Sequence record: NC_073051.1
DNA: 37,268 nucleotides
Strand: one strand, 5' to 3'
Origin: Escherichia phage PEC14
The notes under the pieces were generated by a model. That model searched no databases. It worked only from the letters and a program-made list of their open reading frames with translations, and had not been told where the DNA came from. Of this stretch, positions 31,138 to 35,760 are shown in pieces. Position numbers and translations under genes: made by a program. Within the stretch, counting starts at the first letter, position 1; every line of letters begins with the position of its first letter.

Positions 31138-31167
31138 ACTATAGTGCAACCAATCTATTGGTTGCAA
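31138..31167 (-). promoter_or_regulatory. perfect palindrome TGCAACCAAT-CT-ATTGGTTGCA with TTGCAA-N18-TATAGT
   Basis: Read directly at 31145-31166; overlaps the 3' end of the HAD gene and lies upstream of the gene starting at 31090. Confidence 0.45.
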
Positions 31168-31625
31168 GTGAATTTTGCAACGTTTATCGCGTAAATTTTC
31201 GGGACCAAATCACCACACGCCCGACGAATTGCTGCGATGTTCTTCGGGCAGTCTTCAATGATGACCAGTTCCGACACGTCCGCATAACAGACCATTTTGA
31301 ACACGGCGCACGCCTTAAACTCTGGCGGCGGGGTGTCGTCCAGCATGTGGCGCATAAACAACCTGCCTACCGGGAAGACCTCCAATTGCTCGGCGGTGGT
31401 TTCCCAGCATTCTCGCTGCCGGTTGGTCAGATACGCGATCTCGAAGCCTTGCTCTTTATACATGCGCAGTAGCGGCAGCATATCCATGTTCAGGTCTTCG
31501 CGGACGTGCGCCTTGTGCCACTTCGCCCAAAAGGTGGATTTAGTTTTTACACCCGGCACCAGGTCGGCACGCGCATCGCTTGAACCGTTAATAACGCCAT
31601 CCAAATCGCAAATCAGTAATTTCAT
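31155..31625 (-). CDS. HAD-superfamily phosphatase (possible nucleotidase)
   Basis: N-terminal HAD motif I LLICDLDGVI. Confidence 0.55.
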   Translation of the reverse strand: MKLLICDLDGVINGSSDARADLVPGVKTKSTFWAKWHKAHVREDLNMDMLPLLRMYKEQGFEIAYLTNRQRECWETTAEQLEVFPVGRLFMRHMLDDTPPPEFKACAVFKMVCYADVSELVIIEDCPKNIAAIRRACGDLVPKIYAINVAKFTCNQ

Positions 31626-31826
31626 TTTAAGCTCTCAATAAGGGTGTATCGGGCGCTGCGCGCGGTGAAGGAGTTACACACGAAATGGCAACGCGTGGTT
31701 ATGACAAGCCAGCCGGTAAGATCTAGGCCCAGAATATATTCAGGCCGCGACACGCGACGCACACGATCGCGGCGGGGGTCGATGCAGAAGTCTTTTTGCA
31801 TTTGGTCTACTACCGCAGGGTCGCGG

Positions 31827-32312
31827 TCAACGATTAAGATATTCAAGGAGTTCTCCTTCGCTCATTATTTCAATTTGTGCGCTGCCGGTGGGCGGCGCTT
31901 CGTCAAAGATTATCAATTGCTGGCACTTGTTATTGCTCGGACCGACTTCACCGGTTACAGCATGTATGAATCGGATCCGCCAGTCCAGAAGAATTATCAG
32001 GTTTGCAGTCTTCCGGGCCAGCTTTGCCCACTTCGTCGACGTGTCCTGATTCAGCAGCATGACGGTCCGGCGTCCGTGCGCTGCACACTCGACCCACGGC
32101 AGCGGATCGGAATACGGCGGGTTGCACCACTTCCACCCTTTCAACTCTGACCAGTCCGCCTCAAGCGCGCTGTGCTCTGCCGTGAAGTAACGCGGTAGCA
32201 GGTGGTTGGCATCGCTCGCCGCCATGTCATAACGGAATCGGTACTTCCGGCGCAGCGGTTTAAATAAAGCTGGCGGCGTGCGCCAGCTATCTTTTTGCTC
32301 ACTCTTCTGCAT
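31827..32312 (-). CDS. dam: DNA N6-adenine methyltransferase (phage Dam family)
   Basis: WRTPPALF motif and catalytic NPPYS motif present. Confidence 0.75.
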   Translation of the reverse strand: MQKSEQKDSWRTPPALFKPLRRKYRFRYDMAASDANHLLPRYFTAEHSALEADWSELKGWKWCNPPYSDPLPWVECAAHGRRTVMLLNQDTSTKWAKLARKTANLIILLDWRIRFIHAVTGEVGPSNNKCQQLIIFDEAPPTGSAQIEIMSEGELLEYLNR

Positions 32313-32763: not shown

Positions 32764-33006
32764 CTATTTAAACTCCGTTGTGCGGATTTCCTTGCGTGGT
32801 ATAAATTTGCCGTCTTTCTCGACCCAGCAAGTGCCACCGCGCCACTGGGTGTTACGACCTGTTAGTTCTGCGTAGACAATCCGGCATTCATATTTATCGA
32901 GGTTATACGTGCAGGAAATCGGCAGCAGGAGACAAAAGAATAAGAACAGCACCATACACACCCAAAAACGTAAATCCCCGTCGTCGTCAAAAAAGAATCG
33001 TTTCAT
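32764..33006 (-). CDS. small membrane protein (80 aa)
   Basis: Start at ATG 33006 with GAGGA SD; hydrophobic segment FWVCMVLFLFFCLLLPI. Confidence 0.4.
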   Translation of the reverse strand: MKRFFFDDDGDLRFWVCMVLFLFFCLLLPISCTYNLDKYECRIVYAELTGRNTQWRGGTCWVEKDGKFIPRKEIRTTEFK

Positions 33007-33051
33007 GGTTAAATCCTCATATAAAAAAGGGCATCCAAACCGGACACCCTC

Positions 33052-33085
33052 AATATAATGCAACCAATATGATTATGCAACCAAT
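33052..33085 (-). promoter_or_regulatory. candidate promoter: two ATTGGTTGCAT copies with TTGCAT-N17-TATATT
   Basis: Read on minus strand at 33060-33068 and 33077-33085; -10 at 33052-33057. Confidence 0.45.
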
Positions 33086-33409
33086 TTACGCATAAAAGTT
33101 AGGGTCGCGTGCAACGTCTACCAAATACAGATTGCTGATTCGGTTGCCGTAGTGGCCTGGCGTGCGCTGACGGCACACTACGGCATAGCCTGGAGGTATT
33201 GTATTGCCAGTCTCAATGATCCACGCCACGCGTGCGCCAGACAGCGTCTTGCCGTTGTACTCGATACGAGTACCGCCATCGGCAGTGTTAAGGTTGCCAA
33301 TCTTGCTACCGGTAGACTTCAGGCGGATGACGCCCGTTTTACTGTCGTAGGTGAATAGCTGATTGGTCATTGCTACCGAAAAATCGATGGCTTCGAATGT
33401 GGTATTCAT
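33086..33409 (-). CDS. HNH_3/homing-endonuclease-like DNA-binding protein, probably catalytically degenerate
   Basis: Pattern GARVAWIIETGNTIPPGYAVVCRQRTPGHYGNRISNLYLV resembles HNH_3 domains but lacks the His in the catalytic position. Confidence 0.4.
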   Translation of the reverse strand: MNTTFEAIDFSVAMTNQLFTYDSKTGVIRLKSTGSKIGNLNTADGGTRIEYNGKTLSGARVAWIIETGNTIPPGYAVVCRQRTPGHYGNRISNLYLVDVARDPNFYA

Positions 33410-34116
33410 TCTAAATTTTCCTCGTTAACTGCGATTGCGAAGCCGCGCGGGGTGCGCGACCTGATTAGTTTGGTGCGGGCCGATTTGCCTCCGAGGCGAC
33501 TATACTGCTTCGAGTACCCTTTTTCAACGAAAACAGGTTTCTTCTCTGGCATACGGAAGCCGTTGCCGGTCCATAAGCAGGTCAGCTTCGGATATGAATC
33601 GCGGGCGTTGATGTATTCAGGGAATAACGGGTGTACGTCATCCTCTGGCAAATAGCCTCCATACTCCCACGGGTCAAACGAGTGGTCCGGCTTACGCCAT
33701 TGAGTGGAGAGCACGCTGCGCGGATTCTCAATCATATACGGCACTTCGAAGAAATCACCCAGGTAAGCGGCGATCTTCGCGGTGCGCACCGCCTTAAGCT
33801 GGAAGGCAGGGTCGCGGGCGCGTTTGCGCGGGAACGCTGGCGCACCACTAACCGCCAGATCCGTACACGGCGGGAATGCATAGATGATATCCGGCGTGCC
33901 GAAATCACCATTCATCGCGCGGTCCACGAAGTCCAGATCGATAAACTCATTACGATATCGGATACCGCGCCCATAAATCCGGTAGTCCAGGTACGACCCG
34001 TGATCGGCTTCGGAGTAGTTGAAGCAATAACACTTATGCCCCATCTCGGCAGCACGCTCAATCATCAAGCCGCTGCCGTCGAATAATGACCAGATTGTCA
34101 TTTTAGCAATAGTCAT
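33406..34116 (-). CDS. short C5-cytosine-methyltransferase-like protein (236 aa)
   Basis: Motif I-like SLFDGSG, motif IV-like FPPCTDLAVSG with Cys, motif VI-like ENP; no room for a full target-recognition domain. Confidence 0.5.
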   Translation of the reverse strand: MTIAKMTIWSLFDGSGLMIERAAEMGHKCYCFNYSEADHGSYLDYRIYGRGIRYRNEFIDLDFVDRAMNGDFGTPDIIYAFPPCTDLAVSGAPAFPRKRARDPAFQLKAVRTAKIAAYLGDFFEVPYMIENPRSVLSTQWRKPDHSFDPWEYGGYLPEDDVHPLFPEYINARDSYPKLTCLWTGNGFRMPEKKPVFVEKGYSKQYSRLGGKSARTKLIRSRTPRGFAIAVNEENLE

Positions 34117-35537
34117 TTGCGCGCCTTTTTAGCTTTCATATATTCCATCAGGTCGTCCTGAATATCTCGCTTACTGTCTCGACGCTCTGCGACTAGTTCA
34201 TCCAGTGTGCCGCGCGCCTGGATAATGTAGACGAATACCGGACGAGGGTGTCCGGCTTGCATCTGGCGAACTGGCCCGATACGCTCCACGATCTGCGCAA
34301 AGTGCTCATAGTTCCAGGTATCTGAGAAGATAGCAAGGTGGTGCCCGCCATCCTGCAAGTTAAGGCCGTGACCCGCCGATGCCGGGTGCGCGAACATGAT
34401 GGGGATCTCGCCCCTGTTCCACGCTTCCATATCCTTATTGCCTTGCTTACCCTTACCCATCGCTACGCCGTGAGGGAATTTCTTCTTAAGACGTGCCAAG
34501 TCATGCTTGTACTGGTATGCTACGAGCAACGGTGCGCCGTTCAACTCTTCCACGATACTTTCCAGCGCGTCCAGTTTAGCGTCGTGAATTTTCACCCATT
34601 CGTCGGTGCGCTCGCCGTCTTCGTCGACCTTATACACGGCCCCGGAAGCAAGCTGAAGGCACTTAATGGTCTTCGAAGCAGCGTTCGCCGCCTCCACCGT
34701 TCCGCTTTCCAGTTCGGCAAATAGCTCCGCTTCGAACTGGTCATAAATCTTGCGGGCTTTCTTCGGCAGGTCCACAACAACCGGCGTATAGATTGGCTTG
34801 TCACATCCGAAGTATTCAGCCGCGTCAACGGTAAGGGATACGTCAGACAGGCGTTGTTGGATCTCCTTCTCGGAGTTCTTTAGCGGGGCGTGCTGCATAG
34901 TGAAGCTGCCAGGCTTAACAGGCTTGCTAATAAACCAGCGATCCGTAAATGCCTTATAGCTACTGCCGAGGCGTTCGCCACCATCGACAAACCATGTCTG
35001 CCCCCATAGGTCTTTCAGCCCGTTCGGTGCGGGTGTGCCGGTCAGGTTAATCCAGCGCTTGACGTGCTTATGTGCGATCGCTGCCAGCGCACGGGCGCGC
35101 TTGCTCCCCTGCTTGCTACGATAGCCTTTCAGCTTAGTCGATTCATCGGCAACAACGACCGTAAAGGGCCACGCATCGCCGTAATAGTCGACCAGCCACT
35201 CAACCACATCGTAGTTAACACAAACCACGTTAGCGTCGCTCTCAAGCGCCGCAATACGGTCCTTCTCCGGCCCGGTGCCGTCTACGACCAGCAGGGATGA
35301 GAATCGCCATTTCTCCTGTTCCGGGGGCCAGGTGCCGGACGCAACGCGCAGCGGGGCCAGCACCAGTACGCGGTCCTCCTGGCTGGACAGGATACCAGTC
35401 TGGAACATTTTATTCAGCGCCCACATAGTCGCGCCGGTTTTACCCGACCCCATTGTCGCCCATATATTGCATCGCTTATGTTTTAGGATGAACGCGGTTA
35501 TCAACTTCTGATATTCGCGACGTCGGAATCGTGCCAT
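34113..35537 (-). CDS. SNF2/DEAD-like superfamily 2 helicase
   Basis: Walker A MGSGKTGAT, DEx-box VVVADESTK; start chosen at ATG 35537 (MARFRRREYQ). Confidence 0.75.
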   Translation of the reverse strand: MARFRRREYQKLITAFILKHKRCNIWATMGSGKTGATMWALNKMFQTGILSSQEDRVLVLAPLRVASGTWPPEQEKWRFSSLLVVDGTGPEKDRIAALESDANVVCVNYDVVEWLVDYYGDAWPFTVVVADESTKLKGYRSKQGSKRARALAAIAHKHVKRWINLTGTPAPNGLKDLWGQTWFVDGGERLGSSYKAFTDRWFISKPVKPGSFTMQHAPLKNSEKEIQQRLSDVSLTVDAAEYFGCDKPIYTPVVVDLPKKARKIYDQFEAELFAELESGTVEAANAASKTIKCLQLASGAVYKVDEDGERTDEWVKIHDAKLDALESIVEELNGAPLLVAYQYKHDLARLKKKFPHGVAMGKGKQGNKDMEAWNRGEIPIMFAHPASAGHGLNLQDGGHHLAIFSDTWNYEHFAQIVERIGPVRQMQAGHPRPVFVYIIQARGTLDELVAERRDSKRDIQDDLMEYMKAKKARK

Positions 35538-35541
35538 ATCT

Positions 35542-35760
35542 TTATTCCGCCTTTTTCCAGACTTCGGTTTCACTGTTCCAATTCCTCTTAGTGGCGTAAT
35601 AGTATGGGTCGTGCTCAAGGTGCACACCGGTAGCGCGGAAGCTCTGGAACTTTTGCCAGCACACGGTCAGCGGCAGCGGTTTAGCCATTCCTGAAGTAAA
35701 CCATACGCGATCGCCCGGTTTACATTCGCCCAGCTTGGTGAGTCGGTAATGTTCTTTCAT
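35542..35760 (-). CDS. hypothetical protein (73 aa)
   Basis: ATG with GGAG SD; 4 nt upstream of helicase start. Confidence 0.35.
   Translation of the reverse strand: MKEHYRLTKLGECKPGDRVWFTSGMAKPLPLTVCWQKFQSFRATGVHLEHDPYYYATKRNWNSETEVWKKAE

Follow-up and report, generated by a model that had tools for sequence, protein, structure and literature searches.

Two short genes that overlap at a stop and a start codon raise the question of what the locus encodes: the parts of one split or broken enzyme, or two complete proteins. They lie in a 37,268-nucleotide stretch of DNA from Escherichia phage PEC14 (NC_073051.1; the whole stretch is called the window here), and the longer gene carries motifs of cytosine-C5 DNA methyltransferases (C5-MTases), while the shorter one resembles HNH endonucleases. 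The window phage is a Dhillonvirus, and the 1.7 kb tested matches Escherichia phage PEC9 at 100% identity. We consider it probable (roughly 0.75) that the product of the longer ORF is a SAM-dependent DNA cytosine-C5 methyltransferase, complete and able to act alone, from a compact phage "Dcm-like" family, and that the shorter one encodes a domesticated, non-cleaving HNH protein.

Layout of the locus

An earlier note on this DNA had described two ORFs of 236 and 107 aa with overlapping stop and start codons, and both were recovered exactly there, on the minus strand. The features of the locus are as follows.

34113..35627, minus strand: SNF2-family helicase, directly upstream of the methyltransferase (PF00176, 8.8e-11)
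33406..34116, minus strand: compact Dcm-like C5-cytosine DNA methyltransferase ORF, 236 aa
34099-34101, minus strand: alternative methyltransferase start M6, which would yield a 231-aa form, the commonest among relatives
33412..33423, minus strand: GAGGAAAATTTA, Shine-Dalgarno sequence and spacer of the 107-aa gene, within the 3' end of the methyltransferase gene
33406..33409, minus strand: ATGA, overlap of the methyltransferase stop and the 107-aa start (translational coupling)
33086..33409, minus strand: I-HmuI-like protein with a degenerate HNH motif, 107 aa

The helicase stop overlaps the methyltransferase start in the same manner, with ATGA at 34113-34116, and the ATGA between the two shorter genes is kept in the Dhillonvirus loci that have both. 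Neither ORF is open by chance, as both have many homologues and evolve at a low dN/dS (0.025 for the methyltransferase and 0.046 for the 107-aa gene).

A heptamer of canonical shape, A_AAT_TTA, is found at 33412-33418, just ahead of the methyltransferase stop, and a -1 slip there would lead directly into the HNH-like frame. A programmed -1 frameshift fusing the two ORFs was rejected: GAGGAAAATTTA is invariant in 17 of 17 related loci compared, including an EP23-like locus where no methyltransferase precedes it, and so it serves ribosome binding at the 107-aa gene. The RNA downstream of the heptamer gave no convincing structure (z -1.8).

Family and fold of the 236-aa protein

The 236-aa protein matched PHROG 757 (7e-84) over residues 2-234. 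One search gave 2714 homologous clusters and another 1954 clusters at 50% identity, the latter nearly all 210-260 aa long and aligned end to end. The family was found in 1509 phage records, from Dhillonvirus, Drexlerviridae, Vequintavirinae, Jerseyvirus and Klebsiella phages, and all 47 of its invariant columns are present in the window protein. A protein that had been called truncated thus has the normal length of its family, which comprises about 2000 clusters, and the gene is under strong purifying selection (dN/dS of 0.025). The family is a large, already annotated one of unusually small phage enzymes, and the two overlapping genes form an ordinary accessory module rather than a broken or split enzyme.

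Identification ran through PHROGs, fold comparison and those family members that reach the Pfam threshold. Sequence searches with the window methyltransferase against Pfam, NCBIfam and PDB, by single sequence and by profile, gave no hit, PF00145 included (no match at E<=1). The same searches yielded nothing significant for the 107-aa protein either, and hhalign, run with the methyltransferase family profile against E. coli Dcm, returned a weak match at motif IV only. Homologues about 62% identical to the window protein scored 22.8-28.5 bits against the PF00145 cut-off of 22, over motifs I-IV only; four family members passed the gathering score on these motifs, and 22 of 37 matched at E<=1. The AF2 model (pLDDT 89.6, pTM 0.88) contains seven strands in a class I SAM-methyltransferase fold nearest to solved C5-MTases. 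Its best structural matches are DNA methyltransferases, DNMT3 being the first (14-15% identity to the DNMT3A/DNMT3B catalytic domain). Profile searches and structure prediction, which the earlier note had proposed for both proteins, yielded PHROG matches for each taken individually and a C5-MTase-like fold for the 236-aa protein. Membership in the C5-MTase family is predicted from this fold, the family links and a 53%-identical homologue described below.

Catalytic motifs and variable region

The following segments of the methyltransferase were located in the sequence.

34069..34083, minus strand: motif I, FDGSG (F12-G16), SAM-binding loop; F12, G14, S15 and G16 invariant (n = 37)
33865..33873, minus strand: motif IV, PPC (P82-C84), catalytic cysteine; invariant, aligned with the PC of E. 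coli Dcm
33721..33729, minus strand: motif VI, ENP (E130-P132); invariant, aligned with the ENV of E. coli Dcm
33586..33603, minus strand: segment RDSYPK (R172-K177) at the motif-VIII position, replacing QxRxR; D173, Y175 and K177 invariant
33466..33564, minus strand: residues 185-217, a short, lysine-rich variable region that may serve as a minimal target-recognition segment
33427..33465, minus strand: motif-IX-like segment IRSRTPRGFAIAV (I218-V230), within the C-terminal helices

Motifs I, IV (Pro-Cys) and VI occur in the order noted earlier (F12-D-G-S-G16, P82-P83-C84 and E130-N131-P132) and show no variation across 37 homologues. The order and spacing of motifs IV and VI agree with E. coli Dcm. 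In place of the canonical motif VIII, QxRxR, the protein has RDSYPK at the equivalent position, immediately before model strand 179-184 and with an invariant K177; we infer from this position that RDSYPK serves as motif VIII. From K177 to R219 there are 42 aa, versus 122 aa between motifs VIII and IX in E. coli Dcm. Within this variable region, LGGK and TK are invariant in the 37-sequence alignment, and the region presumably takes part in DNA recognition. Beyond it, the family consensus IRSLTPRGFA agrees with motif IX of E. coli Dcm (RRLTPRECA) at six of nine positions, in a part of the model covered by helices 213-219 and 224-234.

The protein had been thought far too short to hold motifs VIII-X and a target-recognition domain. 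The AlphaFold model, however, contains all seven beta-strands of the catalytic domain, a segment at the motif-VIII position and a match to motif IX were both found, and the variable region is shortened rather than absent. That view held for motif X only: a motif of the GNxV type is missing, and the protein ends 13 residues past TPR.

Relation to the Dcm protein of phage K42

The closest characterized relative is known through phage KarlJaspers (Bas06), whose protein bas06_0055 is 53% identical to the window methyltransferase over 234 residues, each protein being 236 aa long. Residues C82, E128, K175 and K176 of bas06_0055 align with C84, E130, K177 and L178 of the window protein. Phage K42 is a KarlJaspers strain, with a genome 95.4% identical to Bas06, and its 711-bp dcm gene, with the same numbered residues, is lost in phages that escape retron Ec86 (bioRxiv 10.1101/2023.08.16.553469). 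According to the same work, K42 Dcm expressed alone with Ec86 is toxic, and the enzyme raises 5mC in msDNA as measured by LC-MS, which a catalytic mutant does not; the result for K42 dcm and Ec86 is restated in PMC12916289. C84 of the window protein corresponds to C82, the residue mutated in the inactive control, E130 to E128, and K177 to K175, while the second lysine mutated in K42 Dcm is Leu178 here.

The window enzyme and the K42/KarlJaspers Dcm, the trigger of retron Ec86/Eco1, thus belong to the same family, have the same length and share the catalytic Cys, Glu and first Lys; both are orphan enzymes encoded in early/replication regions of small siphoviruses. KarlJaspers is a Hanrivervirus of the Drexlerviridae, whereas the window phage is a Dhillonvirus, and the genomic neighborhoods differ. 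No homologue of the HNH-like protein was found in KarlJaspers, and no such gene lies beside its dcm. By analogy with the K42 enzyme, counterpart of the 53%-identical KarlJaspers protein, the window methyltransferase is predicted to form 5mC.

Specificity of the family for CCWGG was assumed from the analogy to host Dcm and tested in a dcm+ host (bioRxiv 10.1101/2023.08.16.553469). CCWGG sites in the window (126 observed versus 136 expected) are neither avoided nor enriched, a count that is uninformative on specificity, and the compact family, whose recognition domain is nearly absent, may recognize a sequence other than CCWGG. In the literature on DNA methylation in Dhillonvirus or Drexlerviridae, nothing was found beyond the work on retron Ec86. 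A Dhillonvirus "unknown protein" has been reported to trigger Retron-Eco7 (PMC12640716); the text of that report does not allow it to be identified.

The 107-aa HNH-like protein

The 107-aa protein matched PHROG 99, "HNH endonuclease," at 1.5e-16, and this PHROG matches 10 of 10 family members. The match to Pfam HNH_3 is weak (E 0.052; 13.6 bits versus a cut-off of 24.8). Two segments distinguish the protein from canonical HNH_3 enzymes.

33173..33178, minus strand: V78-C79, at the position of the HNH_3 catalytic Asp-His (alignment with three canonical HNH_3 endonucleases)
33149..33157, minus strand: G85-H86-Y87, a two-residue insertion relative to canonical HNH_3; invariant in 10 of 10 family members

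The Asp-His position reads V-C within the string VVCRQR, and T-L or R-C in relatives. The HNH_3-like sequence with an altered catalytic His, described before as CRQR, is accordingly present, with a solid match to PHROG 99 and a weak one to HNH_3. The model keeps an N-terminal sheet like that of I-HmuI, where this sheet is the DNA-contacting part. The match of its core fold to the beta-beta-alpha-metal fold is partial, as the helix is missing: none follows the second strand, and the protein stops 9 residues past that strand. No equivalent of the TxxxN helix, and hence of its metal ligand, was found. The protein appears to be the N-terminal half of an I-HmuI-like HNH endonuclease, apparently catalytically dead.

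The HNH-like family is small, about 10 clusters in 160 phage records, and is limited to Dhillonvirus (156 records, at the same position) and Eiauvirus. The degenerate HNH state is common to the Eiauvirus relatives, at 39-41% identity, and is therefore old and maintained; dN/dS (0.046) is low in both halves of the protein. Instead of the sporadic distribution of a mobile gene, we found the same position in all 156 Dhillonvirus records, along with diverged relatives. "Domesticated former homing endonuclease" is a reasonable description of such a protein.

HNH enzymes tolerate varied metal ligands, and the invariant G85-H86-Y87, together with N93, could conceivably support an unconventional active site; R90 and D98 are invariant as well. 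The 107-aa protein would then still be a nuclease or nickase, working through an active site rebuilt around His86, and would form with the methyltransferase a restriction-modification-like or self-protected homing cassette. Phage EmilHeitz, which has an intact HNH-AP2 endonuclease gene right behind an orthologous methyltransferase, could be cited in favor. We nevertheless regard a live nuclease as unlikely, given the missing helix with the last metal ligand, the end of the chain so soon after the second strand and the lack of a C-terminal DNA-binding domain. The EmilHeitz endonuclease is related to the 107-aa protein only generically (hhalign probability 11.7%), HNH genes near the methyltransferase are sporadic, and a PADLOC search of the window proteins returned no match.

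Pairing and separability of the two genes

The EmilHeitz arrangement had suggested an association of methyltransferase and HNH genes across the family, which was rejected by a survey of 80 loci with the methyltransferase. Among the 73 non-Dhillonvirus loci, seven have an HNH_3 gene within 2.5 kb, at variable distances, and none has one that abuts. Conversely, an EP23-like locus has the helicase followed by the HNH-like gene, with the methyltransferase absent, and phage Teewinot keeps the HNH-like gene next to a methyltransferase reduced to a 61-aa remnant. The genes are separable, because natural phages retain the HNH-like gene without the methyltransferase. In eiAU-183, the order is helicase, HNH-like gene and then a canonical 330-aa C5-MTase. 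Adjacency of the two genes is lineage-specific synteny and not an obligate partnership.

These observations bear on the proposal that the locus encodes a split enzyme, in which the 236-aa protein would catalyze and the dead HNH protein would supply DNA recognition in trans, replacing the target-recognition domain. Split C5-MTases are known: in M.AquI and M.EcoHK31I, a catalytic polypeptide of about 250-300 aa is followed by a small second ORF whose product contributes true methyltransferase motifs (IX, or IX and X). In the window, by contrast, motif IX belongs to the 236-aa protein, and the 107-aa protein, which has an HNH fold, carries no motif of a methyltransferase. A two-subunit enzyme would fit the ATGA overlap, the invariant internal ribosome-binding site, the methyltransferase variable region of just about 40 aa and the retained I-HmuI-like sheet; moreover, the pair with its stop/start overlap is conserved in Dhillonvirus-like contigs even where the HNH-like relatives are only 59-64% identical, and the eiAU homologue also adjoins a C5-MTase. 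Against this, the methyltransferase is roughly ten times more widespread (1509 versus 160 phage records), its K42 counterpart works alone in E. coli, EP23-like and Teewinot phages have the HNH-like gene only, the eiAU neighbor is an enzyme of canonical length, and no HNH gene abuts the methyltransferase in the 73 other loci. Co-occurrence is confined to one lineage, and the genes also occur apart, unlike the M.AquI type. We therefore consider the split enzyme put forward in the earlier note quite improbable.

The conserved overlapping pair and the eiAU homologue beside a C5-MTase make a functional link between the two proteins possible. In one speculative form, the Dhillonvirus-like HNH protein would act with the minimal methyltransferase as a trans DNA-recognition or targeting subunit, or the pair would be a fossil self-protecting homing cassette; either would explain why translational coupling has lasted while the HNH-like protein diverged to 59% identity, yet we hold this to be a long shot.

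Alternative reactions and decay

A C5-MTase fold might also serve another reaction, acting on free nucleotides or RNA or transferring a group other than methyl (e.g., carboxymethyl from carboxy-SAM). A full target-recognition domain is lacking, and so is motif X, which lines the cofactor pocket in M.HhaI. The best structural matches are DNA methyltransferases, however, and the specific rise of 5mC that the K42 enzyme caused on msDNA depended on its catalytic residues; known dCMP methylases have a thymidylate-synthase fold, not a C5-MTase fold. An enzyme acting on nucleotides, as had been envisaged, is thus very improbable, as are the other variants.

Decay into a truncated methyltransferase pseudogene and a homing endonuclease gene being lost, or a decayed selfish element, is hardly credible, even though the 107-aa protein has lost its catalytic residues and C-terminal domains, the SSL-2009a copy is frameshifted in its C-terminal part and some isolates have deleted the methyltransferase. 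It is already contradicted by the strong purifying selection on both genes (dN/dS 0.025 and 0.046 at synonymous divergence of up to >1), by invariant catalytic motifs in about 2000 clusters of equally short length and by an old, maintained degenerate HNH state common to Eiauvirus.

Discussion

The window methyltransferase shares with bacterial type II C5-MTases (PF00145; E. coli Dcm and M.HhaI) the fold, the motif order I, IV, VI, IX and a similar IV-VI spacing, and the covalent-Cys chemistry is predicted to be the same. Unlike these canonical enzymes, it is below Pfam detection, about 90-240 residues shorter, without a GNxV motif X and with RDxYPK for QxRxR. The conserved motifs suggest a mechanism in which Cys84 (Pro-Cys motif) would attack a flipped-out cytosine at C6, Glu130 (ENP motif) would activate the ring, Lys177 would stand in for the motif-VIII arginine, and the methyl donor would be SAM held at the FDGSG loop. 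DNA would be read by the shortened lysine-rich variable region of about 40 residues instead of a full target-recognition domain. DNMT3, the best structural match, functions in dimers or tetramers together with regulatory partners, and the window enzyme may likewise act as a dimer.

The methyltransferase gene is probably read as part of the replication operon, its translation being coupled to that of the SNF2 helicase, and the enzyme would methylate phage DNA, most likely blunting host restriction. As a side effect, enzymes of the compact Dcm-like family can trigger retron Ec86/Eco1, an activity established in the literature for the K42 homologue.

The 107-aa ORF would correspond to the N-terminal DNA-contacting sheet and HNH core of an I-HmuI-type homing endonuclease. 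Compared with I-HmuI (PDB 1u3e) and the phage HNH_3-type homing endonucleases of PHROG 99, it lacks three elements: the Asp-His dyad, the helix that binds metal, and the DNA-binding domains of helix-turn-helix/AP2 type at the C-terminus. Active homing endonucleases are sporadic, whereas the 107-aa gene is fixed in the genus under purifying selection. We picture its product as a domesticated, non-cleaving protein that belongs to the replication module of Dhillonvirus and Eiauvirus, where it most likely acts as an accessory factor that binds DNA.

Two "hypothetical proteins" of PEC9 can now be annotated as a Dcm-like C5-cytosine methyltransferase and an inactive HNH-like protein, and the impression of a broken gene is corrected. 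The apparently dead HNH protein neatly illustrates the retention of a homing endonuclease after catalysis was lost. To our knowledge, the methyltransferase family is among the smallest C5 DNA methyltransferases, at about 230 aa versus about 330 aa for the classic minimal bacterial enzymes, and such a compact enzyme could serve as a small methylation tool. For the phages, the family is likely to counter restriction and is known to trigger retron Ec86/Eco1, and therefore the presence of the methyltransferase may affect sensitivity to that defense system.

Genomic context of the two genes

The window is a Dhillonvirus genome, in which the 1.7-kb stretch around the two ORFs matches Escherichia phage PEC9 at 100% identity and approximately 150 further Dhillonvirus records at 88-92%. 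Both genes are annotated as "hypothetical" in PEC9 and as "Dcm-like C5 cytosine methyltransferase" and "putative homing endonuclease" in sister phages. The features are as follows.

34113-34116, minus strand: ATGA overlap of SNF2-family helicase stop and methyltransferase start
33406..34116, minus strand: methyltransferase ORF, 236 aa
33406-33409, minus strand: ATGA overlap of methyltransferase stop and HNH-like start, the overlap described in the earlier note
33086..33409, minus strand: HNH-like ORF, 107 aa

The helicase gene, the upstream neighbor of the methyltransferase gene, lies with both ORFs in a single long minus-strand replication operon, which continues 3' of the HNH-like gene with two small ORFs, a Dam-type N6-adenine methyltransferase (PF05869), a 74-aa ORF, and a HAD phosphatase. 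Only some Dhillonviruses carry the five-codon N-terminal extension MTIAK of the methyltransferase (34099-34116, minus strand); most start at the second Met, giving a 231-aa protein, and the ATGA overlap with the helicase stop is kept in both forms. Directly 3' of the HNH-like gene, a 99-aa ORF (32764-33063, minus strand) with the long hydrophobic stretch FWVCMVLFLFFCLLLPI had no match in Pfam and may encode a small membrane protein. The 74-aa ORF (31622-31846, minus strand, TTG start), between the Dam-type gene (31827-32312) and the HAD phosphatase gene (31155-31625), agrees in length and neighbors with Ksap1, a Dhillonvirus protein activating the KpAvs2 defence protein, and carries Leu and Thr at residues 47 and 50, where the escape mutations L47R and T50P were reported (PMC11564622); judged by sequence, it fits the Ksap1 description. 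Across the whole window, some restriction-type palindromes are strongly depleted (YGGCCR, 5 versus 32 expected; CAGCTG, 2 versus 11; CTGCAG, 4 versus 11), and CCWGG, CCGG, and GATC counts are close to expectation.

The methyltransferase belongs to a compact family

Searches of Pfam, NCBIfam, and PDB sequences with the 236-aa protein returned no match, and PHROG 757 ("DNA methyltransferase") covers residues 2-234 (7e-84). Homologues fell into 2714 clusters in a word-indexed search, and an exhaustive profile search with the family found 1954 clusters at 50% identity; among the matches listed, nearly all are 210-260 aa long and align over their full length. By tblastn, the family occurs in 1509 phage records, including Dhillonvirus, Drexlerviridae, Vequintavirinae, Jerseyvirus, and Klebsiella phages. 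Shortness is thus a property of the entire family and not the result of truncation of this copy, as had been supposed; the protein is complete for a compact methyltransferase family that is already known, annotated, and partly characterised.

Alignment of 37 members (56-83% identity) contained 47 invariant columns, including those of the motifs recognized previously, FDGSG (motif I), PPC (motif IV), and ENP (motif VI), as well as a C-terminal LGGK...TK.IRS.TPRG block. PF00145 matched 22 of the 37 members at E ≤ 1, and four members approximately 62% identical to the window protein passed its gathering score, over motifs I-IV only. Over the span of motifs IV to VI, the family profile is colinear with E. 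coli Dcm.

Comparison of E. coli Dcm with the window methyltransferase
Motif IV to motif VI: Dcm, 48 residues; window protein, 46 residues
Motif VI to motif VIII position: Dcm, 50 residues; window protein, 42-47 residues
Motif VIII: Dcm, QHRER; window protein, RDSYPK (K177 invariant)
Motif VIII to motif IX: Dcm, 122 residues; window protein, 42 residues
Motif IX: Dcm, RRLTPRECA; family consensus, IRSLTPRGFA
Motif X: Dcm, GNSV; window protein, none, the C-terminal end lying 13 residues past TPR

The view that the protein has no room for motifs VIII-X and a recognition domain was thus correct in part: the protein has no motif X, and its variable region is reduced, relative to Dcm, to approximately 40 lysine-rich residues, whereas motif IX is present and the motif VIII position holds a variant.

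A homologue methylates cytosine in vivo

Phage K42, a KarlJaspers strain, yielded mutants escaping retron Ec86, and a 711-bp "dcm" gene was disrupted in 4/4 of them (bioRxiv 10.1101/2023.08.16.553469). Plasmid-expressed K42 Dcm alone was toxic only with Ec86 in the cell and raised 5mC on purified msDNA, as measured by LC-MS, while the C82A/E128A/K175A/K176A mutant gave no rise (bioRxiv 10.1101/2023.08.16.553469); the K42 Dcm/Ec86 result was repeated in a later paper (PMC12916289). The 236-aa product of the KarlJaspers (Bas06) gene bas06_0055 (711 bp) aligns with the window protein over 234 residues at 53% identity (E 6e-85), and C82/E128/K175/K176 align with C84/E130/K177/L178, the second lysine thus being replaced by leucine. 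Therefore, a close relative of the window protein is a stand-alone DNA C5-methyltransferase in vivo, which speaks against the proposal of an enzyme acting on nucleotides.

The CCWGG specificity of K42 Dcm was presumed from its analogy to host Dcm, and the only test of it was mutation of the cytosines of one msDNA-stem CCTGG in a dcm+ host; this host was MG1655, whose Dcm does not activate the retron (bioRxiv 10.1101/2023.08.16.553469). K42 Dcm may therefore recognize another target site than host Dcm does, or another form of substrate, e.g., hairpin or single strand. The window shows neither a deficit nor an excess of CCWGG (126 sites versus 136 expected).

The HNH-like protein is a conserved relic

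The 107-aa protein scored below threshold with Pfam HNH_3 (13.6 bits), and PHROG 99 ("HNH endonuclease") matched every family member (best, 1.5e-16). Both gene identities originally proposed hold, and the observation is in large part right. Its AlphaFold model is confident (pLDDT 85.7) and had 57 Foldseek matches at E ≤ 1e-3 among viral models, those with names being mostly longer HNH or homing endonucleases. In alignment with three canonical HNH_3 endonucleases, IDHIN...DNR..NLR..T...N becomes VVCRQRTPGHYGNRISNLYLV-D: the catalytic position is degenerate, as suspected, with V-C in place of Asp-His (in relatives, T-L or R-C). Two extra residues, with an invariant GHY, are inserted, the C-terminus falls before the helix bearing the last metal ligand, and the C-terminal DNA-binding domains of I-HmuI-type enzymes are lacking.

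This dead HNH is a small uncharacterised family, with approximately 10 clusters in a set of 5.8 billion proteins and, among phages, 160 records (156 Dhillonvirus and 4 Edwardsiella eiAU-type). The Eiauvirus homologue, at 39-41% identity, has the same degenerate HNH state, so this state is old; in Edwardsiella phage eiAU-183 (locus L021, 3360-4835) it is 151 aa long with an extra N-terminal segment. In SSL-2009a, the HNH-like gene (locus L019, 3001-3333) changes frame after residue ~73, giving a 111-aa product with an unrelated C-terminus, either by a real frameshift or by a sequencing error in an old record.

Nei-Gojobori estimates over the window and 13 related loci gave a median dN/dS of 0.025 for the methyltransferase (median dS, 0.35) and 0.046 for the HNH-like gene, both halves alike (median dS, 0.57). 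By these estimates neither gene is decaying, contrary to the idea of a decayed element.

The two genes are separable

That the two proteins are functional partners in a split enzyme is favored by the stop/start overlap, by an invariant internal ribosome-binding site, and by retention of both genes together in contigs where identity of the HNH-like protein is down to 59-64%. However, the methyltransferase family is approximately 10-fold more widespread than the HNH-like family, the active K42 enzyme works without a partner from the phage, and an HNH-like homologue was not found in KarlJaspers. Furthermore, in an EP23-like phage the helicase is followed directly by an intact HNH-like gene (105 aa), the methyltransferase being absent, Teewinot keeps an intact HNH-like gene beside a 61-aa in-frame methyltransferase remnant, and the order in eiAU-183 is helicase, HNH-like gene, and a canonical-length 330-aa C5-methyltransferase. 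In our 80-locus survey, an HNH_3 gene lay within 2.5 kb in 7/73 non-Dhillonvirus loci and abutted the methyltransferase in 0; the HNH-AP2 endonuclease adjoining the orthologous methyltransferase in Escherichia phage EmilHeitz is only a generic relative of the HNH-like protein. Altogether, a split enzyme is not supported; most simply, the HNH-like gene would be a helicase-proximal core gene of this phage lineage, with the methyltransferase an adjoining accessory cassette.

The methyltransferase is cleanly absent from the EP23-like contig (IMGVR_UViG_2597490041; locus L016, 2920-3060), where the HNH-like start lies one base past the helicase stop and the 99-aa ORF is missing too; the Teewinot loss (locus L020, 2986-3171) is an in-frame deletion that spares 61 aa. 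In eiAU-183 the 330-aa enzyme has PC and GNAI motifs and is followed by a Dam-type enzyme, components similar to those of the Dhillonvirus module in a different order. The EmilHeitz gene (Vequintavirus; locus L027, 2225-2896) overlaps the 3' end of the short methyltransferase gene by 8 nt, with primase/helicase next, and its product, an HNH_3 endonuclease bearing two AP2-like repeats, appears intact; this type was not found in rV5-like loci of the survey, so the EmilHeitz copy looks like a sporadic homing endonuclease insertion.

A -1 frameshift at A_AAT_TTA, just 5' of the methyltransferase stop, would enter the HNH-like frame. This candidate was dropped, as GAGGAAAATTTA is equally invariant where no methyltransferase precedes and the RNA downstream of the heptamer has no notable structure (z -1.8); GAGGAAAATTTA is the ribosome-binding region.

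Proposed mechanism and role

We propose that the methyltransferase would follow standard C5 chemistry, with attack by Cys84, ring activation by Glu130, SAM held at the FDGSG loop, and Lys177 substituting for the motif VIII arginine. In this enzyme nearly devoid of a recognition domain, the target would be read by the short lysine-rich segment 185-217, possibly in a dimer, as in DNMT3. Most likely, the enzyme shields phage DNA from cytosine-sensitive restriction, at the probable cost of activating retron Ec86/Eco1. The 107-aa protein most likely binds DNA within the replication module and does not cut it, although of all these proposals this one is the least secure.
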